From positions 1 to 64,000 of the forward strand of contig JAWMAR010001726.1 in NCBI GenBank assembly GCA_036785375.1: 64,000 nucleotides of DNA. Direction: 5' to 3'. The notes below the pieces were generated by a model that saw only the letters and a list, made by a program, of their open reading frames with translations, had not been told where the DNA came from and searched no databases. A program made the translations under genes and the position numbers. This document shows positions 4,776 through 44,762 of this stretch, piece by piece. Numbering within the stretch: position 1 is the first letter of the stretch; every line of letters starts with the position of its first letter. The stretch comes from Leucoraja ocellata (taxonomy: Eukaryota).

Positions 4776-5636
4776 CAGTCATCATAAATAGCTGGATTCC
4801 ATTATTTAGAAATAATGACATTTTATATCTGAGAAAGAGAGAGCTTTGATACTACTGGCAGCTATTCATTCCAACAAACATGACAACAAGCATTGAACAC
4901 TTTTTTTCTTAATCTCTAACAACAAGGACCTCATTACAAATATTCACGTAATAATATTGCTGCATCTTATGACAAATTGGACGCGTAATTACATAGTAAT
5001 ATACCACATGGTTTTCTCCCTTTGAAGAAAACTTTATACATATTTATAAACAGTCATTACAGAACTTGGCCTGAGTAAGCCTTGGGACTGCCCGTTAACA
5101 ACAAAGAATGGATTATTAGCCATATGTCCTTCTTCACAATGGAACTATCTGAAACCATGTCACTCTGCAATGCTAATAACTTGATGACAATTAGGATGGT
5201 AACCTTCAAAACCCTTATAACATTTTTATTTGAACATGATATCTTTAAAGTGCTGAAAATGCCATAATTTATTATCAATCAAAAATGTCCTGGAATTGAG
5301 ACCAGTTTTAGTCATATGGCAAGAATGGCAGATTTCCTCCACTGAGGAAAATGAGTGACCAGCTTATTTTGAAGAATTCCAGATTTATTTAATTCTTGAA
5401 TTTAAGTTCTCCATTTAGAGGGATTCAAACTTGTGCCCTGGATCAATGGTCCAGAAATGAGGGTGTTGATCCACTAATTTAACCCTTACAGGAATTTCCT
5501 CCGTTGACTCACAATACAATTATTTGTGGCATAATTGCCATAAAAAACAAGGTCTATGTCCCTTCAAGATGTGAAATATCATGCAGATTCAGTGTGTGAG
5601 CAATGGGAAATATGTTCATACTGTGCATTCAAGACT

Positions 5637-5762
5637 ACATAGAAACATAGAAAATAGGTGCAGGAGGAGGCCATTTGGCCCTTTGAGCCAGCACCGCCAT
5701 TCATTGTGATCATGGCTGATTGTCCCCAATAATAACCCATGCCTGCCTTCTCCCCATATCCC
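5637..5762 (-). mobile_element. CR1 3'-end fragment
   Basis: catagaaacatagaaaataggtgcaggag... is the reverse complement of the CR1 3' end with its (TTCTATGT)n tail, as at 42540-42607. Confidence 0.85.
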
Positions 5763-5801
5763 TACACTTTTGTATTTTGTTTTACAAGCTATTGATCCAT
5801 A

Positions 5802-6088
5802 AGGGTAGCACAGCAGTAGAATGGCTGCCTCACAGCGCCAGGCACCCAGGTTTGTTCCTGACTACGGGTGCTGTCTGTAGAGTTGGTACATTTTCCCGGT
5901 GATGACGTGGGTTTTCTCTAGGTACTCTGGTTTCCTCCCACATTCCAAAATGCAGGTTTTTAGGTTATTTGGCTTCTGAGAAATGTCCTGAGTGTGTAGT
6001 ATAGAACTAGTGTGTGTGTGATTGCTGGTCGGCGTGGATTCGATGGGCTGAAGGACCTGTTTCCATGCTGTCTTTCTAAACAGAAAAC
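5802..6088 (+). mobile_element. tRNA-derived V-SINE (HE1-like)
   Basis: A/B-box-like head, central ggtttcctcccacattccaaa V-domain core, CR1-like tail; one of ~10 copies in the window. Confidence 0.85.
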
Positions 6089-21775: not shown

Positions 21776-23110
21776 GAGTTACGATGAGGGATTATGTGAA
21801 TAGCCCGCCAGCCTGCATGCACATCAATCTTCAAAGCAGCGGTGTGAAATCACAGATAACTGTTGTTGAACTGAATATAGGAAGATTCGAGAAACTAGAA
21901 CCACCAGCTGACATTTATGAGAGAGGGTTGGGAGCAGAGGGCACGTAATCCCTCATCGTAACTCCTCATAGAATAAAGATCAAACTTTAAAATGGTAAGT
22001 TCTCGTTTAATCTTACTATTATTACTGACTTGATGACCCGATGAAATAGGTTTTAAAGATTTATCTCAAGATTTTTTCCCCTAACTTCATGTTGAAATCA
22101 GAGAGACTACGTGAAGATTTCAAAGTTCTGTGATTTCATGCCGTGAACACGAGTCCATGCGTCACACACTGCATCAGTTGACCAAGGATGAGTGAACATT
22201 AATAATGCATTCAGACAAGACATAGATATAGACATACTGCTGCTTTTTAATGAACAAATAATAATAATAATAGTAACCCCTCTCATCTGGGAGAAAACTA
22301 TGAAACAGAACCTAAAATAGAGTTGGCAAATACCCCCGGTCTGTCAATGGGTTTGTTATAAAATGTTTGGAATGATCGTTCGTTTGACCAACCTGCAGCC
22401 GCTAGGATGTGGTCCAGCAGAACGTCCAAGCTGCTGATGTTATTGCAGACCTGGTGGAGTGAGATTTGAAAATGTCAGTGTTCACTCCTGCACAAGCCAG
22501 AACCCATTTTAACCACCTGGAGATGGTCTGTACTGATACCTTCTTATGAGGTTTTATGTAACTAACAAACATTGCTAGTTCAGAGCCTCTAAGGCTCTTA
22601 GTGACCTAACATACTGTTGTAGATGTGTGACCACACACAACCGAAGGTCCATGGGATATGCCAACAAATCTAGTTTGGGACCTGATGCCCCTGGTCTACT
22701 CTGCTTGAGTAAGTCATAAACATAAAATGTTATTTTGCCTGCAGATGTAACCATCCTGTCCAGTCGCAGCTTATGCAATGACTGGACCCGTCATGCTGTA
22801 ACCAGCGCAATGAGCATAACCACTTTGTAAATGAGTTTGACCAAGGACAGGGATGTAGCTGGAGTCTACCGGTGATGTGGCGTTAGCACAATGTTAACAT
22901 CCCATATCTCTGCGTACCTGGACCTGGGAGGTTTTGAGTCGAAGATACCCTTCATAAATCTGGATATCAGAAGGTGAGATCCGACAGAGTGGGTCCCGCT
23001 CTCCGCAGCAAATATGATGAGGGCACGTTTGGCACAGTTAATGGCACTATAACTTAATTTTTGTCAAAGACCCATTCGAAAATGAACTTCAAGTCGTCAG
23101 TCATCCATGC
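21776..23110 (-). mobile_element. DIRS-type tyrosine-recombinase retrotransposon remnant (YR plus terminal repeats)
   Basis: Minus strand: ISRFMKGIF..KPP...WDVNIVL...LIALVTA*RVQ...KQSRPG...LCVV...KPHKKVSVQTISRWLK...FKSHSTRSA...ILAAAGWSNERSFQTFYNKP (R / HxxR / W / Y signature). 23-bp inverted repeat at 21776-21798 / 21942-21964. Confidence 0.9.
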
Positions 23111-23134
23111 CGTATTATATGTAACCAGTCCTAA

Positions 23135-23232
23135 CCAGTCTGAAGAAGGGTCTCGGCCCGAATTGTCACCCATTTCTTCTCTCCAGAAATGCTGCCTGTC
23201 CCGCTGAGTTACTCCAGCTTTTAGTGTCTACA
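23135..23232 (+). mobile_element. Penelope-like pLTR fragment (mutated hammerhead core)
   Basis: CTGAAGAAGGGTCTCGGCCCGAATTGTCACC followed by ...gctgcctgtcccgctgagttactccagc. Confidence 0.8.
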
Positions 23233-24994
23233 CACATTGAACAATTATGCACAGTAGGGTTGCCAAGTACAGAATAATCTTTGATGTCATGTTTGTACTT
23301 CAAAAGGCCTCTGATGTGGCCAATAATTTGGTAATTTTCCATTGCTGCCAGCAGGAAATGGTATTCAATCAAAAGAAAGAGATGAAGGTGACTGAATTGT
23401 TCCATTACTAACACAGATGACAAAAATAATTGGTTGTTCTTTAGCAATTCTGTACAATTGTACGCGACTGATGATTTAAAAAAAAAAAAAACTGGCATGC
23501 CTATAAGCCTCTGAAATTTAGAATAATAAAGAATAATTTTCAAGATACCAGGCAATGAACAGCAAGTACATAATTCGAACACAATAGCTACAAACATTTA
23601 AACAAACTGTTGCTCGTAGAGTACATGCTCTTAAAATGTGATTGGCCTTTCGATGATAATGCACTGTAGTTAGTCATCTTTATCCAGTCCTGATCAAAGA
23701 TCCTATAACAGAGCAAGATAGGCCACTCCTATGAAATGCAATGGGCTGACATGTAGTACACAACGGAGCGGAACGTGGGCATTTTCTTTTGTTCATTTCA
23801 GTAACCGGAGCCTACCCAACCCGACCCGACTCGCAGTGTAATCAACGTTGCGAGGGAATGGTTTGTGAGTGTGATATATGGTTAGATTCATAATTCTGTT
23901 AGTTCATCATTCTGTTAATTCTTGTTAAAGAATAAAATGTTTATACATTTTGACTCTGGTAATTTTCTTTTTTAATGTTTTTTTTAATAATTTCTTTTTA
24001 AATGGCTCATATGCTGTGTTTGAGTTGATTTTAAATTACACTTGCACTTCACAACTGCAGTATTTGGGAAAATAATAGCAATATGAAAATTCCAGTTGCT
24101 CTAGCCCTGGAATGTTACTTAATGTTTTTGTGTCTATGGAGTTATTTCTCAACAATAAAATGGGTCTGTTCTTCCCAATAGCCAGAGAGTGGAATGAGAT
24201 CTGTCTGTAATTTGTTTTGAGCAAGATTTACAAATGATGTATAACTTAAGGATGGTTTTATTCAGCGAGCATACAACTGATTAGATTTTGCTCGAAAGAA
24301 CACACATACATAAATGTGATATAGATGTACAGTATATAATAATATAACACACACATTTACATTTCTTCCAACTTTTATATCCAATGATGAACTTTATTTC
24401 AAACTAGACAAGGGACAACATTAAATTAAAAAAACATTGTAAACCTCCCCGCAACTTCACTTTGGTGTCTCGGCTGTGCTGATCTGGGCCAGACTCCCCG
24501 CACGCTGTGGAAGGAACATCTATCGCTTTTATTGTGATTTATTTCTCTTTTTAACACTGAATATCTGATAACGACACATTAGCAGCATATGGAACCAATA
24601 TTGCACCAACCCACTCAATTTTAAATAATTCATAATAGAAATCCATTAAGATGGTTAACACTTTATTTCTGACAAGCATAATAAAATTTACATAATTCAC
24701 ATTATTCTGTGCGCGAGATATACAGGGTTGCAGTGTTCAGCATATCAGCTAACCAGTGAAAGTGTTGTACAATTCAACATATGTAACATAATGGTAGCCC
24801 CACCCTTCTTACACCAAAGAGCAAAACGTCCAACGTAGATACAATAATAAATAAATCGCCATTTGCATTGTTTTGAGCTGCTAACAAATCACAATTTCAC
24901 ACAATGAACATAAGACGGCAGTCATTTGACAAATACTGCAGTTCGGTGTAGGAGATCATGTCGGCGAGTATTCTGGACCCATTGTCGACATCTG

Positions 24995-26345
24995 AAATAA
25001 CAGAGAGGTAGAAAGAAAATGCTCTTGAGAATAGTTTTACAAGGATGTTGCCATGAGGCAGCTAGTACTCCTGCACCTATTCCAGCACTATCTAAATGGC
25101 ATTAAGTTGGGAAAAGGGGAAGTACAACAGGATCTGGGGTTCCTTGTACAACAGTCTATGAAAGTAAGCATGCAGGTACAGCAGGCAGTGAAGAAAGCGA
25201 ATGGCATTTTGGCCTTTTTAACAAGAGGAATTGAATATTGGAGCAAAAGGTCCTTCTGCAGTTGTACATAGCCCTAGTGAGACCACACCTGGAGTATTGT
25301 GTGCAATTTTGATCCCCTGATATGAGGAAGGACATTCTTGCTATTGAGGGAGTGCAGCGTAGGTTTACAATGTTAATTCCCAGGATGGCGGGACGGTCAT
25401 ATGCTGAGAGAATGGAGCAGCTGGGCTTGTACACTCTGGAGTTTAGAAGGATGAGAGGGTATCTTATTGAAACATATAAGATTGTTAAGAGCTTGGACAC
25501 ACTAGAGGCAGGAAACATGTTCTGATGTCGGGGGAACCAGGGGCCACAGTTTAAGAATAAGTAGTAAGCCATTTAGAATGAAGATGAGGAAACACTTTTT
25601 CTCACAGAGAGTGGTGAGTCTGTGGAATTGGAGGCAGGTTTTCTGGATGTTTTCAAGAGAGAGCTAGATAGGGATCTTAAAAGTAGGGGGATATGGGGAG
25701 AAGGCAGGGGATATGGGGAGAAGGCAGGAAAGGGGTACTGATTGTGGATGATCAGCCATGATCACATCGAATGGCGGTGATGGCTCGAAGGGCCAAATGG
25801 CCTGCTCCTGCACCTATTGTCTATTGTCTATTGAGGCTTCGACTGTATCTGAGACAAAGGGGAGCACCCAGCTCTAAGATCTGAACTATAGTATATAGTG
25901 ATCTGTATATATCACTATAGTATATAGTGGGCTGTATATCTGTCTATAGTATATAGGGGTCTAAGATCTGAACTATAGTGAGAGTTCGGGCAGACTTAAT
26001 AACATTCTCAGTATTAAACAGAGTCAATATGTTCTTATTCTGCATTAAATAACAGAGAGGTAGAAAGAAAATGCTCTTGAGGAGAAGATTTTTACAAGGA
26101 TGTTGTCATGAGGCCTCGACTGTATCTGAGACAAAGGGGAGTACCCAGCTCTAAGATCTGAATTATAGTGAAAGTTCGGGCAGACTTAATAAAATTCTGT
26201 ACAAAACAGAGTCAATATGTTCTTATTTTGCATTAAATAACAGGGAGGTAGAAAGAAAATGCTCTTGAGGAGAACATTTTTACAAGGGTGTTGCCATGAG
26301 GACTCGACCATCTGAGCTCAATGATCTAACTACAGTGAGAGATTG
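24995..26345. repeat. ~190-bp tandem repeat (3 copies) forming the THAP intron
   Basis: aaataacagagaggtagaaagaaaatgctcttgag...ccatgaggc...cgactgtatctgagacaaagggg starts at ~24995, ~26047 and ~26235. Confidence 0.85.
25059..25832 (+). mobile_element. CR1 3' fragment inserted in the THAP intron
   Basis: MQVQQAVKKANG...RKDILAIEGVQRRFT, (CTATTGT)n tail, flanked by a TGAGGC duplication. Confidence 0.9.
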
Positions 26346-27261
26346 AACAGAATAAATACAATTCTCAATATGCCACAGAAGTAATAAATGTTTTCTTACC
26401 TTTCCTCCTTAATGGGGAACCTGAAGAAAGATGTTGCGTCCCCTACATTGCCGATTGGAGCAATTTACCACAGAGCAGAATGCAACACTAGTAGACGTGG
26501 ACGCCATGGCCAAAGTGAAGATTGTTTGGATTTGAGAGCGGAGGCGGAAGCAAAGATCCTATCTTTGGGTGGAAGCAAGATGGCGGAAGCAAGATGGCAG
26601 AAGCTGATTACGAAAATGGGTCCTATAATTACCCATGAGTCTGCCCATGACCGTACCACGTGTTTTGCGTAGGAGTTGTCCATCTTGCTCCTCTAAAGGA
26701 TCTTTGGTCCTGATTGAATGTCAGTTCACCATGAGCGTGTCCCCAAAATGTCCAGTAGATGGCTCTGTAAACCAATTAATATTATGAAGAACATTTGGGA
26801 AGCTGTAAATCATATTGAACAGATTTCTTAAATTTTGAAAAATGGTAAAACAAAAACAGTGAACGTTTTGAAATCAAGGGGGTACACTTAAAGCCTTATT
26901 AGGAGAGTTGAAAACAATGAAGGGGGAGTTGAAATTGAGGAAGAGATGTTCTGTATGTCCAGTGGACCAACATATCCACCATATATACTGCTACAAGGCA
27001 GCTGCAGCAGAGGATGCCAATGACAGGAGACAAATCCTGAGACACTTGCAATATTATTATACTGCAATATTGCAATACACTTGCAAGACTATTAGAAGTT
27101 CACGGACTTCAAATTAATGCATCTTCAAATGTCGAATCCCACCTAATCAGCCATAAATTACTGGTAAACACATCCCCATTCCTTGATGAACCAAGAATCT
27201 TTATCAATACCATCTGACATCTAAAATTATCATGCATCACAGCTCCTCGGTTTGCACTGTA

Positions 27262-27550
27262 GTGCAGCAGTGGTATTCCTGCTTCACAGTGCAAGAGACG
27301 CAGGTTCGATCCTGACTATGGGTATTGTCTGCATGGAGTTTGTCCATTCTTCCTGTGACAGCGTGGGTTTTCTACAAGTGCTCCGATTTCCTCCCACACT
27401 CCAAAGATGTGCGGGTTTGTAAGTTAATTTGCTCTGTAAATTGTCTCTAGAGTGTAGGATAGAACTAGTGCACAGGGTGATTGTTGAGCAGCGTGGACTT
27501 GTTGGGCCGAGGGGCTGTTTCCACACTGTATCTTGAAACTAAACTAAAAC
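27262..27550 (+). mobile_element. V-SINE (HE1-like)
   Basis: B-box ggttcgatcc, V-core, (CTAAA)n tail. Confidence 0.9.
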
Positions 27551-27663
27551 ACAATCAGATAATATGACAGAATGTAGTTGGCCATTTTTGTCCAGTCCCG
27601 ATTGAATGCCAGTTCATCATGTTCAGCAAATAAATACTGCTATTGCTGGAAACTAGAAATAAA

Positions 27664-27963
27664 GTGACACTGCTGGTACAGCTGCTGAGTCACAGCACCA
27701 GAGACCCTGGCTCGATCCTGACCTCGGGTGCCATATGTGTGAAGTTTGCACATTGTCCCCTTGACTGCATGACTTGCCTCCGGGTGCTCCAGTTTTTTCC
27801 CACTTCCAAAAGACACAAGGATTTCTAGATTAATTGCCTTCTGTAGAGTATTAAGAGTGCTTGAGAGAGCAGGATAACATTGAACTAGTGTGAACAAGCA
27901 AACTCGGTGGGCCGAAAGGCTTGTTTCCATGCTATATCTTTAAACAAAAGACAACTAAACTAA
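27664..27963 (+). mobile_element. V-SINE (older subfamily)
   Basis: Same architecture as the neighbouring copy, more diverged. Confidence 0.8.
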
Positions 27964-28562
27964 AAAGAAATGCTAGAACCATTCAGTCGGTCAGACAGCA
28001 TCCATGGAAAGAGAAACAATGTTTTAGGTTGATAAAATGTTGGTGCTGAAAAAGAAAAAAATCAAACATATTTAAATGATTCCTACATTTTTCCTTTTTA
28101 TGTAATTTCAATTTTAAAGCATATATTCCCTGTACTGAAATAATTTATACAGACATAAATTGCTTTATCCAGTCATAAAATGTAGCATAAAATTTCAATT
28201 GTTCTGATCACAAAGACAACATTACTCATACAGAAGTGCACTATTAGAAATCTCTCAACACTTAAGTGAAGATTGTCTCTCCTTCCTCCCTCATGAACCA
28301 ACATGAACATTCCCAAAACTAGCTGCATTGAAGAGTTTATGCACACATTTTCTATCTTCAATAGCACTCGAGTGTGGGCATAATGCAACCAGAATTGAAT
28401 TATCAATAGATACAGACCACATGTTCTTGAAGTCTGCTTGATGTAAAGAATTGAGTCTCAAAGTTATTTGATAATTTAATTTAGCATTTATTGCTTGACT
28501 AACCAGCATTAAAAATAAGAAACATTTTTATAGGCCTTGTTGGACACAAATGTTGTAATCTA

Positions 28563-36003: not shown

Positions 36004-36940
36004 TAACTGTTTAATGAAATAATTTAATGCGCCATGCAATTACGAATAAAACATTTCAAGTAATAGATTTTATAATCTACTAATAAAACGTGATAGACAG
36101 GATATTTGATTAACTTTAAACTTACAGGAATAATGCGTGTGTACAATTAAATGACCTTTTGCCTGCTTCACCTATTGACTAGGAAATGGCTAATTAGTTT
36201 TTTTTTGCTGTCATATATAACCTTCAGAAAGATTTTTTAGTACCTAAGAAAAGCTAATTCTCTCACCTTTTGTTAAGAAGATGATTAGCATGGAGTTGTT
36301 AAGCGATGCTGCATTCATTTATTTTCACAAGATGATCATTTTTCAAATTTACATTTAAACAGCTATAAAATTGATTAGTTCTTATTTTTGAAATTTGCCC
36401 AATAGGGCATATGTTTACAAGTGTTTTTGTCTCAATTTATTTTAAGGTTTTGTATTTGTTAATTTCATTAAAGTTTGCCATCTGCCATTCAAAGACATGT
36501 CAAAAAAAAGACCATCTGTCTCACTAGCAGGATATTGCTCTCTGTGGAAAGCCAAAGTAAACCATTACCTTTTAACAAAGATGAAAGCTTCTGGCATGGG
36601 CAAGCAGAGCAAGTTATATGGTTTTCAGACAATAGAAAAATCAGTTGAAATTTTCCTGATTCATTGCTGAATGTACCGGCCACAATTAGTTCCATTGTGG
36701 TCAACTTAACTTAACTCAAATATTCTGTTACGTTCTTGCATGGATACATCCGGGAGATAGAATAAATCTGCTGTCCCTATCCTTGCTTAGGTATCAATGC
36801 ACGCTCACAATGTCGGAAAGCCAAATAATCTAATGGACGCAATGCCTAAAAGCCAAATACCCGAACCGGTGCAACGCTGAAAAGCTGGCGCAATGGCGAA
36901 AAGCCAAATATATGCGACGCCGAAAAGTCAAATAACGGAC

Positions 36941-37126
36941 NNNNNNNNNNNNNNNNNNNNNNNNNNNNNNNNNNNNNNNNNNNNNNNNNNNNNNNNNNNN
37001 NNNNNNNNNNNNNNNNNNNNNNNNNNNNNNNNNNNNNNNNNNNNNNNNNNNNNNNNNNNNNNNNNNNNNNNNNNNNNNNNNNNNNNNNNNNNNNNNNNNN
37101 NNNNNNNNNNNNNNNNNNNNNNNNNN
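36941..37126. other. Assembly gap (186 N)
   Basis: Run of N. Confidence 1.
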
Positions 37127-40792: not shown

Positions 40793-42607
40793 CCTTGAGA
40801 GATCAAATGTAGGTCCCTTGCAGTCAGAAACGGGTGAATTGATCATGGGGAACAAGGACATGGCAGACCAATTGAATAACTACTTTGGTTCTGTCTTCAC
40901 TAAGGAAGACATAAATAATCTGCTGGAAATAGCAGGGGACCGGGGGTCAAATGAGATGGAGGAACTGTGAAATCCAGGTTAGCCGGGAAGTGGTGTTAGG
41001 TAAATTGAATGGATTAAAGGCCGATAAATCCCCAGGGCCAGATAGGCTGCATCCCAGAGTACTTAAGGAAGTAGCCCCAGAAATAGTGGATGCATTAGTG
41101 ATAATTTTTCAAAACTCTTTAGATTCTGGAGTAGTTCCTGAGGATTGGGGGGCAGGTAATGTAACCCCACTTTTTAAAAAGGGAGGGAGAGAGAAAATGG
41201 GGAATTACAGACCAGTTAGTCTAACCGGTAGTGGGGAAACTGCTAGAATAGTTATTAAAGATGGGATAGCAGCACATTTGGAAAGTGGTGAATTCATTGG
41301 ACAAAGTCAGCATGGATTTATGAAAGGTAAATCATGTCTGATGAATCTTATAGAATTTTTCGAGGATGTAACTAGTAGAGTGGATAAGGGCGAACCAGTG
41401 GATGTGTTATATCTGGACTTTCAGAAGGCTTTCGACAAGGTCCCACATAAGAGATTAGTATACAAACTTAAAGCACACGGTATTGGGGGTTCAGTATTGA
41501 TGTGGATAGAGAACTGGCTGGCAGACAGTAAGCAAAGAGTAGGAGTAAACGGGTCCTTTTCACAATGGCAGGCAGTGACTAGTGGGGTACCGCAAGGCTC
41601 AGTTATGGGACCCCAGCTATTTACGATAAATATTAATGATTTGGACGAGGGAATTGAATGCAACATCTCCAAGTTTGCGGATGACACAAAGCTGGGGGGC
41701 AGTGTTAGCTGTGAGGAGGATGCTAGGAGGTTGCAAGGTGACTTGGATAGGCTGGGTGAGTGGGCAAATGCATGGCAGATGCAGTATAATGTGGATAAAT
41801 GTGAGGTTATCCACTTTGGTGGCAAAAACAGGAAAGTAGATTATTATCTGAATGGTGGCCGATTAGGAAAGGGGGAGATGCAACGAGACCTAGGTGTCAT
41901 GGTACACCAGTCATTAAAAGTAGGCATGCAGGTGCAGCAGGCAGTGAAGAAGGTGAATGGTATGTTAGCATTCATAGCAAAAGGATTTGAGTATAGGAGC
42001 AGGGAGGTTCTACCGCAGTTGTACAGGGTCTTGGTGAGACCACACCTGGAGTATTGCATACAGTTTTGGTCTCCTAATCTGAGGAAAGACATTCTTGCCA
42101 TAGATGGAGTACAGAGACGGTTCACCAGACTGATTCCTGGGATGTCAGGGCTTTAGTATGAAGAAAGACTGGATAGACTCGGTTTGTACTTGCTAGAATT
42201 TAGAAGATTGAGGGGGGATCTTATAGAAACTTACAAAATTCTTAAGGGGTTGGACAGGCTAGATGCAGGAAGATTGTTCCCGTTGTTGGGGAAGTCCAGA
42301 ACAAGTGGTCACAGTTTAAGGATAAAGGGGAAATTTTTTAGGACCGAGATGAGGAAAACTTTTTTCACACAGAGAGTGGTGAATCTCTGGAATACTCTCC
42401 CGCAGAACGTCGTTGAGGCCAGTTCATTGGCTATATTTAAGAGGGAGTTAGATGTGGCCCTTGTGGCTAAAGGGATCAGGGGGTATGGAGAGAAGGCAGG
42501 TACAAGATACTGAATTGGATGATCAGCCATGATCATATTGAATGGCGGTGCAGGCTCGAAGGGCCGAATGGCCTACTCCTGCACCTATTTTCTATGTTTC
42601 TATGTTT
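40793..42607 (+). mobile_element. Young CR1 LINE, 1.8 kb, near-intact RT domain
   Basis: ORF 40951-42156: KSPGPD...NYRPVSLT...QHGF...YLDFQKAFDKVPH...GVPQGSV...SKFADDTKLGG. Premature stop at 42154, C-terminus 42184-42513, (TTCTATGT)n tail. Confidence 0.97.
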
Positions 42608-42711
42608 ATATCATGACTCTCAGTCAGAGCTGTGAATAACACTGAACACATGCCTACTAATTGTGATTGGTTTTACTGACCTGTGAGTGCCCTTAATGTA
42701 GTTTGAACAAG

Positions 42712-42968: not shown

Positions 42969-43254
42969 TAATCACAACTCTCTGTCTGAGCTGTGAACCA
43001 ACTGAACACACTGAATGTCTACTGAATAATCTACTGAATACTATTTTCTATGTTTCTATTTGATAGGGGACGACCAGCCATGATCACAATGAATGGTGGT
43101 GCTGGCTTGAATGGCCAAATAGCCTCCTCCTGCACCTATTTTCTATGTTTCTATGTTTTCTAAGTATGAGTGCGGTTTTTAAGTGCTTTTTATTTGGTTT
43201 TTATGTGGTGGTTTGTGGTGTTTTGTGGTGTTTTATGTGGTTTTGTGGTGGTTT

Positions 43255-43625
43255 CACCCTACTTGAAACGGTATGAAACTGCATTTGAATTTGATGGCCT
43301 TGCAACCTGCTTGAAATGGCATGAAACTGCATTTGAATTTGGTGGCCTTGCACCCTGCTTGAAATGGCATGAAAATGCACTTGAATTTGGTGGCCTTGCA
43401 CCCTCCTCGAAATGGCATGAAACTGCATTTGAATTTGGTGGCCTTGCACCCTGCTTGAAGTGGTAGGTACTGCACTTGAATTAGGTGGCCTTGCAACCTG
43501 CTTGAAGTGGTATGAAACTGCACTTGAAATTGGTGGTCTTGCACCTGCTTGAAGAGGTAGGATACTGCACATGAATTAGATGGCCTTGCACCATGCTCGA
43601 AGTGGTATGAAACTGCACTTGAAAT
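43255..43625 (+). repeat. 47-bp minisatellite (ggtggccttgcaccctgcttgaaatggcatgaaactgcatttgaattt)
   Basis: About eight tandem copies; an inverted array lies at 44296-44620. Confidence 0.95.
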
Positions 43626-43824: not shown

Positions 43825-44295
43825 TGCCAACAGGTGCAGGAGTAGGTCATTCACCCCCTCAAGCCAGCACTGCCATCATGGCTGATCATCCACAAATCCC
43901 ATTCCTGCTTTCTCCCCATATCCCTTGACTCACTGTCTTTAAGAGCTCTGTCCAGCTCTCTCTTAAAAGCATCCAGAGAACCAGCCTCCACTGCCCTCTG
44001 AGGCAGAGAATTCCACACTCACAGCTCTCTGTGTGAAAACGTTTTTCCTCATCTCCATTCTAAATGGCTTACGCCTTATTCTTAAACTGTGTCCCCTGGT
44101 TTTGGACTCCCCCAACATTGGGAACATGTTTCCTGCCTCTAGCATGTCCAAACCCTTAATAATCTTACATGGTTCAATAAGATCCCCTCTAAATATTCTA
44201 AATTCTAGATTATACAAGCCCATCCGCTCCATTCCATTAACATATGACAGTCCTGCCTTCCCAGAAATTAATCTGGTGAACCTACTCTGCACACC
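43825..44295 (-). mobile_element. CR1 3' fragment
   Basis: GVQSRFTRLI...RGDLIE...RGHSLRIR on minus. Confidence 0.88.
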
Positions 44296-44762
44296 CCCAA
44301 GTTTCATACCATTTCAAGCAGGGTGCAAGGCCACCAAATTCAATTGAAGTTTTGTACCATTTCAAGCAGGGTGCACGGCCTCCAAATTCAAATGCAGTTT
44401 CATACCATTTCAAGCAGGGTGCAAGGCCACCAAATTCAAGTGCAGTTTCCTACCAATTCAAGCAGGGTGCAAGGCCACCAAATTCAAGTGCAGTTTCATG
44501 CCATTTCAAGCAGGTAGCAAGGCCACCGAATTCAAGTGAAGTTTCATACCATTTCAAGCAGGGTGCAAGGCCACCAAATTCGTGCAGTTTCATATCATTT
44601 CAAGCAGTGTGCAAGGCCTCCCCTCCCATCGGAAGGGTCGTGCCCTTCATGGCATAATTGACAGGAGAGAGATTCTGAACATTTTTAAAACACTGATAAC
44701 ACTTTTATTTTTAATTGATGGGAAGAATCCTCTGCACCTGATGAGCCAAGGGGGACTGAGTG
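44296..44762 (-). mobile_element. Inverted copy of the 40438 Helitron-like family with a 47-bp array
   Basis: 44620-44762 is the reverse complement of 40540-40680; 44296-44620 is the reverse-complement 47-bp array. Confidence 0.75.

Follow-up and report, generated by a model that had tools for sequence, protein, structure and literature searches.

A probable old, internally deleted P-superfamily transposon with a decayed THAP gene in the skate Leucoraja ocellata

A stretch of 64,000 nucleotides from the skate Leucoraja ocellata (contig JAWMAR010001726.1, positions 1 to 64,000 of the forward strand; hereafter the window) carries a transposon at 23695-26706, lying between two exact copies of an 8-bp target site duplication (TSD), GTCCTGAT. 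The best explanation, with a probability of about 0.88, is a non-autonomous, internally deleted cut-and-paste transposon of the P superfamily, an old insertion in a cartilaginous fish lineage (probably skates, to judge from the named homologs) that is now inert. An earlier reading of the same letters (the original prediction) had proposed a deletion derivative of a spliced THAP transposon family, and the evidence below bears out much of that proposal while changing what it means for this copy.

The boundaries of the element are set by four features:
23687..23694, no strand: left copy of the TSD (GTCCTGAT), an exact 8-bp repeat
23695..23731, minus strand: 3' terminal inverted repeat (TIR), imperfect, about 37 bp, 30/37 matching the opposite end
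26670..26706, minus strand: 5' TIR, across which depth drops to single copy in three DNA runs, 30/37 matching the opposite end
26707..26714, no strand: right copy of the TSD (GTCCTGAT), an exact 8-bp repeat

The inverted match between the ends is exact over the outermost 10 bp and then runs to 12/13, 21/26, 30/37 and 32/41 positions. The TIRs of the original prediction are present but extend, imperfectly, well beyond the 10 bp given there, and its perfect TSD is found unchanged. Among all 2638 N-free 10-bp inverted pairs spaced 0.1-10 kb in the whole window, only two have an 8-bp direct repeat adjacent to them, namely the element and one other pair, which sits within two ends of long interspersed nuclear elements (LINEs); 100 triplet shuffles (mean 822 pairs each) gave three such matches in total. 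Both ends start with CAAAG, fitting 5'-YARNG, the terminal motif of the P superfamily as quoted in PMC2820524, and the exact 8-bp TSD of this one copy falls within the 7-8 bp given for the superfamily in PMC3698922. At this one site the TSD also matches 6 of the 8 positions of the core of the Drosophila P target motif (a GTCCGGAC-like palindrome, PMC2577343), a level reached or exceeded by 0.25% of sampled window 8-mers, and the rebuilt empty insertion site is self-complementary at 12 of 20 positions.

Between these ends lies the remnant of a gene on the minus strand:
26400..26507, minus strand: coding part of THAP exon 1 from its ATG, with one frameshift near 26432
24992..26399, minus strand: GT-AG phase-2 intron of 1408 bp, made of one 165-190 bp unit in three copies
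25060..25831, plus strand: 3' end of a LINE, 772 bp, lying antisense to the THAP gene as an insertion within the third unit of the intron
24853..24991, minus strand: remnant of THAP exon 2 with two frameshifts and without a His codon, clear as far as about 24905 and a faint trace from there to about 24853
23732..24852, minus strand: 3' non-coding part of the element, in which no transposase remnant was found

The reading frame starts with an ATG at 26507, and the donor AAG/GTAAGA after 26400 and the acceptor TTTCAG/A before 24991 join the exons in phase 2. The predicted pair of THAP exons and the intron between them are upheld: the splice sites are there and the exon pieces are colinear with THAP proteins across the junction (tblastn with P0001, E 3e-10 and 7e-6). 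The homologous proteins run uninterrupted over the junction, which supports the intron indirectly. When a 40-residue THAP piece was compared with longer proteins, all three candidates were THAP proteins: P0001, an unnamed protein of 161 aa; P0002, a gene model of Amblyraja radiata; and P0003, a model of Leucoraja erinacea. P0001-P0005, the relatives, match PF05485 at 61-64 bits, and the window read-through, with X at the three frameshifts, reaches 40.7 bits on a profile of four non-skate THAPs (maximum of 1000 shuffles, 8.7). In addition, P0002 and window exon 2 share 17 consecutive residues.

Decay of this gene is extensive. The spliced peptide is a THAP domain with frameshifts, as had been predicted, three of them within about 70 codons, but it does not reach the H-F of the motif, since no codon for His, the zinc ligand, occurs across 24904-24886. 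PMC4168063 lists eight invariant THAP residues; C, C, P, W and C are still present in the window copy, H, F and the last P are missing, and an AVPT-like motif was not found in it either. The first frameshift, in exon 1, is private to the window copy: in each of the three DNA runs, contigs from other copies carry two more letters and keep the frame. In the tail of exon 2, a 9-residue match lies 1 nt off its expected place, at a level reached by 1.4e-4 of window positions for a segment picked after inspection; this faintly suggests that the THAP end decayed to about 24853 rather than being cleanly cut. A tblastn match to F-F-x-P just upstream of exon 2 was rejected as a pyrimidine tract that is not coding. 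No catalytic remnant of the transposase was found in the element with P0002, P0004 and P0006-P0008 as tblastn queries, and P0002 has no credible match there past residue 66 (best other E 0.73), so that the leucine-zipper dimerisation region was not found.

Could such a copy still encode a KP-type repressor or a domesticated THAP protein? Its ATG and splice sites are intact and its 5' end is relatively rich in CpG (observed/expected 0.64 in 26400-26706 vs 0.39 window-wide), and small Drosophila P elements can encode repressors, for example the 207-aa KP (PMC7776569). KP as described there is, however, an intact protein that binds DNA and dimerises, and the window copy cannot encode such a protein, with its frameshifts, its missing His, next Phe and last Pro, and no dimerisation region. 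Furthermore, none of 110 RNA reads, from a run of organism D whose flank is 2.7% different, was at least 99% alike to the window copy. With neither a zinc finger nor a dimer encodable, the window copy would be an inert deleted P element, unlike KP, and the repressor likeness of the original prediction is very unlikely to hold. P0002, in contrast, is an intact THAP-linker-coiled-coil-helix-turn-helix (HTH) model and a better KP-like candidate, to judge from its predicted protein, than the window copy.

The second question is the superfamily. A hAT-type element related to THAP12/PRKRIR, the option that the original prediction kept beside its lean to P, would be compatible with an 8-bp TSD and with a likeness of this THAP to that of THAP12. 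The same THAP subtype, including the THAP12-like stretch of the window, is however carried by the full-length P-type transposases P0089 and P0145. The closest relative, P0002, runs on from its THAP (64 bits) into a P-type HTH (Tnp_P_element, 22.7 bits against a cut-off of 23) and matches 6p5a, the P transposase of Drosophila, at E 1.5e-4. Over its last 100 residues P0002 has 74% identity to P0006 and 77% to P0007, both of which carry the P-type HTH, RNaseH_N, GBD and RNaseH_C families, and P0006 aligns to the catalytic core of 6p5a at E 3e-43 with all three acidic (DDE) motifs kept. An HTH and an RNase H (DDE) fold with a GTP-binding insertion are thus present in relatives linked via P0002 and absent from the window copy. 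Among the 16 relatives scanned by Pfam, 11 pass a P-type cut-off and none has a hAT family, dimerisation or catalytic. By these protein comparisons the assignment to P, not hAT, can be regarded as settled, the lean to P is confirmed and a hAT origin is exceedingly improbable. GTP dependence and 17-nt staggered cleavage are described as P superfamily biochemistry (PMC7776569, PMC10983969).

The catalytic relatives form a narrow group. Among 249 well-covered proteins, eight have at least 60% identity to the catalytic core of P0006 (P0006 included), none has 50-60% and 241 have less than 50%. In a quick tree built from 42 chosen rows, seven of the eight fall on one branch with a Shimodaira-Hasegawa-like approximate likelihood ratio support (SH-aLRT) of 99, a support that is partly circular because identity served to select the close group; P0008 sits on a long branch in the same tree. 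Among the best 120 of 484 matches to P0006, most of which are unnamed, the only named proteins come from the snail Batillaria; THAP9 is not among the names, and the tree contained no named THAP9. Uninterrupted catalytic open reading frames (ORFs) of the clade occur in P0006, P0009 and P0010. In the JGI metagenomes, no relative of P0007 was confirmed (104 pattern matches, 0 confirmed) and no TIR match was found.

Part of the 5' end of the element was found in 20 of 24 listed sequencing runs, with no RNA run among those listed; for five organism labels 20-29% of its words were found, and no label reaches half. The stretch 26317-27040 was compared with four of the 24 runs, one RNA and three DNA. 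In each DNA run the right flank is one contig deep, and at the 5' TIR the depth falls from 97-186 times the flank to single copy. Relative to the flank, summed depth comes to 25-47 over exon 1 and to 97-186 for the bin that spans the element end; it rises to about 500-770 in the inner TIR and to 5000-5900 at 26642-26666. Taken as orders of magnitude, these values suggest that THAP-bearing relatives number in the tens, ends of this type in the hundreds and those of a sister type in the thousands. It is this sister family, whose TIR departs at 26670, that gives the highest peak. The family, with its slightly different TIR, has the stretch 26617-26670 in common with the element, at a depth of about 5000-5900 times the flank in three runs, and is probably a very abundant P-type miniature inverted-repeat transposable element (MITE). 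BuT5, a Drosophila P-associated MITE (PMC3698922), is a model for very abundant sister sequences with common subterminal DNA; it is described there without a coding remnant, unlike the window element.

Other copies also illuminate how the family varies. Most contigs are less than 95% alike to the window copy (411/495, 454/587 and 448/583 in the three DNA runs), which has many private letters, and one contig of DNA run X1 matches through 26705 and then passes into other DNA, marking a second insertion site. The subterminal sequence of the 3' end, 23735-23760, occurs in other copies of run X4 (7 contigs with a loose end at 26671, judged by eye), and in a further copy 26446 is followed by a sequence resembling 24063-24092 (10 RNA reads, 27/30 letters, by eye), so at least that stretch is element DNA. 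Together these loose ends indicate that both ends belong to one family and that other internal deletions exist, and three further deletion joints are listed among the copies. The predicted deletion derivative of a multicopy family is therefore borne out by the loss of the rest of the transposase and the many related copies. A drop of RNA depth at the donor was discarded as evidence of splicing because the DNA runs show the same drop.

In X1, X2 and X4 the single-copy flank contig crosses into the element for 52-78 bp, with 0, 4 and 11 differences. The right insertion junction is common to organism labels A, B and D, whose flanks are 0-2.7% apart, which makes the insertion old. A recent insertion from a currently active family would explain the perfect TSD and outermost 10 bp, the clade's uninterrupted catalytic ORFs, and the 18-28 contigs per DNA run that are at least 99% alike to parts of the stretch, some of them this locus itself. 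It fits poorly with a junction held in common by three labels across flanks up to 2.7% divergent, and with the private mutations and the later LINE insertion, and we consider it highly improbable, for the window copy and not for the whole clade. The family has been mobile in this lineage, as predicted, but for the window copy that mobility is ancient, and the copy itself, to judge from its sequence, is old and inert.

Several points weigh against this reading of the element. These TIRs and a catalytic domain were not seen together on any one sequence, and the link from one to the other is a chain of protein matches through P0002, a weak link. The TSDs of other copies were not seen, and Pfam THAP matched none of the six unjoined pieces of the THAP region. 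Moreover, the sharing of the junction concerns the right junction alone, X1 (label A) may be the window's own species, and summed contig depth is not copy number.

Within the element, the intron and the 5' region record later or family-wide changes. Only the first intron unit keeps the donor and only the last the AG acceptor, and splicing could thus have survived the triplication. The LINE end in the third unit has a short tandem tail at 25814-25833 and matches 41863-42603 at 72%, where the ORF of the copy carries RVT_1; we take it to be CR1-like. Once the triplication and the LINE end are subtracted, the element is about 1.8 kb long. Two further features lie upstream of the ATG:
26551..26567, no strand: 17-bp palindrome of two terminus-like halves, at a contig depth of 556-891 times the flank, mostly a perfect palindrome
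26571..26604, no strand: 14-bp tandem unit in 2.4 copies, with GCAAGAT in common with both TIRs

The palindrome was considered as an excision footprint, with its terminus halves between near-identical 8-mers, and rejected for this locus: it is family-wide at that depth, no 25-bp skip is listed, and the flanking 8-mers are unlike in most contigs and are units of the tandem array; the translated 5' region of the more distant P0001 also has a stretch like the palindrome region. It could conceivably be an ancient excision footprint in the family founder. The 14-bp tandem is a candidate transposase-binding or promoter motif. In related families, too, a motif like the terminus lies some 100-150 bp in from the 5' end (contig loose ends at 26541-26608), and a variant end starting CACAG at 26541 occurs in one contig of each of two runs; such internal motifs are candidates for a nested insertion hotspot or a structural feature.

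A dead element may also be kept as a cis-regulatory module of a host gene, as Izanagi was at medaka dmrt1bY (PMC2820524), which would be compatible with an inert P element. The insertion is fixed across organism labels, the right flank has 1-3 RNA reads, and the CpG-richer ends hold tandem motifs that resemble ETS and YY1 sites. RNA depth is nonetheless at background, and no host gene was recognised in the window: of 42 long ORFs scanned (60 listed), one matched Pfam, as a LINE reverse transcriptase, and short exons would escape such a scan. A regulatory role is therefore unlikely, though less so than the other alternatives.

Further repeats occur elsewhere in the window. The LINE copy at 40933-42611 has a 407-aa open frame with RVT_1, and 3' ends of its family are scattered about ten times. 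A dispersed repeat of about 280 bp (27259-27548, also at 5805, 12077, 18774, 27690, 31267 and 35687) is probably a tRNA-derived short interspersed nuclear element, and its head presumably contains a B-box-like motif; Rfam gave no match in 23000-28500. Arrays of a 48-bp unit at 43235-43616 and 44252-44629 form an inverted pair, 88-92% complementary and about 900 bp apart. The window contains 186 N, most or all of them in an assembly gap at about 36940-37125.

How would such an element have come about? Transposase would have been supplied in trans by an autonomous family member, its THAP binding motifs near the ends, perhaps the GCAAGAT repeats. GTP-dependent pairing of the ends would have been followed by excision, and an 8-bp staggered cut would have placed the element into a roughly palindromic GTCC-type site. 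An internal deletion, probably through interrupted gap repair, and neutral decay afterwards would account for the private substitutions, the three frameshifts, the intron triplication and the LINE insertion, in no set order. The steps of trans-mobilisation, excision, integration and repair are carried over from Drosophila P (PMC7776569).

This kind of element is already known. Izanagi of medaka (PMC2820524) is described as a non-autonomous P element with an 8-bp TSD, a 27-bp TIR, a degenerate THAP in three putative exons and a LINE inside, and the present element resembles it as a vertebrate, non-autonomous element with an 8-bp TSD, a medium TIR, a degenerate multi-exon THAP, no catalytic domain and an internal LINE. 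The novelty claimed for a mobile vertebrate P-like family was therefore overstated, the same architecture being in print. The two nevertheless differ: the TIR here departs from the printed 27-bp TIR after CAA (by eye), Izanagi is reported as medaka-specific with 13-28 copies and owes its assignment to P to just its THAP and termini, a catalytic clade having been identified for the present element, and a regulatory role is shown for Izanagi and none here. With zebrafish Pdre2/THAP9, as described in PMC10983969, the element shares the P superfamily, the 8-bp TSD, internally deleted copies and a THAP-HTH-RNase H-GBD partner layout. Pdre2 is given there 13-bp perfect TIRs (CATACCTGTCAAC) and 12-bp subterminal repeats, unlike the imperfect TIRs of about 37 bp and other sequence seen here, and a Pdre-type subterminal repeat pair was not found among the 25 longest of 47 inverted pairs. 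Drosophila P (PMC7776569) is alike in its 8-bp TSD, GTCC-type palindromic target, intron-split transposase and internally deleted derivatives, and unlike in its 31-bp perfect TIRs. In the full-text literature, sharks, skates and Chondrichthyes included, no description of a chondrichthyan P family was found, with Repbase, Dfam and most subscription papers outside this scope; automatic repeat libraries of skate assemblies may well hold the family unnamed. DNA transposons are reported to be scarce in the elephant shark (PMC6817897), whose P content may be given in supplementary tables of that paper. It seems that an abundant P-element lineage exists in cartilaginous fish and is little described.

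The best lead lies in skate gene models, as yet unverified, in which this THAP is intact or joined to host domains. P0003 is 95% identical to P0002 over residues 1-199, with an intact THAP-linker. Past residue 199, near the start of the catalytic exon of relatives, P0003 turns to non-transposase sequence, and P0002 continues into its HTH. The C-terminus of P0003, a host-like coiled coil, looks MORC3-like; a database look-up did not confirm this and returned only bacterial coiled-coil look-alikes. P0004 and P0005, both models of Leucoraja erinacea, have THAP and linker joined to a B-box and a TRIM coiled coil, with no RING family match, and are candidate host-transposase fusions, as far as predicted proteins can tell. 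P0002-P0005 are unverified models and may be annotation read-throughs. Capture of transposases by host genes has been documented for tetrapods (10.1101/2020.05.07.082677).

The window copy does nothing; it is the family and its possible host fusions that carry the interest. A wider interpretation, offered tentatively and open to considerable doubt, is that a skate P clade stands apart from THAP9/Pdre and nearer to invertebrate P transposases, has been amplified to thousands of copies, retains intact catalytic exons and has repeatedly donated promoter and THAP exons to host genes, giving a THAP in place of the TRIM RING, another joined by splicing to the coiled-coil C-terminus of a host protein, and a KP-like THAP-zipper-HTH protein. 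If true, vertebrates would have a second lineage of P elements, there would be a candidate for the first P transposon of a vertebrate genome demonstrated to cut out and integrate its own ends, and a group of young fusions between host and transposase would exist outside tetrapods. Reports of P transposons with real ends in vertebrates come from few fishes (zebrafish Pdre and medaka Izanagi; PMC10983969, PMC2820524), and zebrafish THAP9 is described as excising and not integrating (PMC10983969). A skate clade that is abundant, has defined ends and keeps its catalytic exons uninterrupted would supply substrate and enzyme as a pair for tests of P chemistry in a vertebrate lineage, and the THAP fusions would extend transposase capture to cartilaginous fish.

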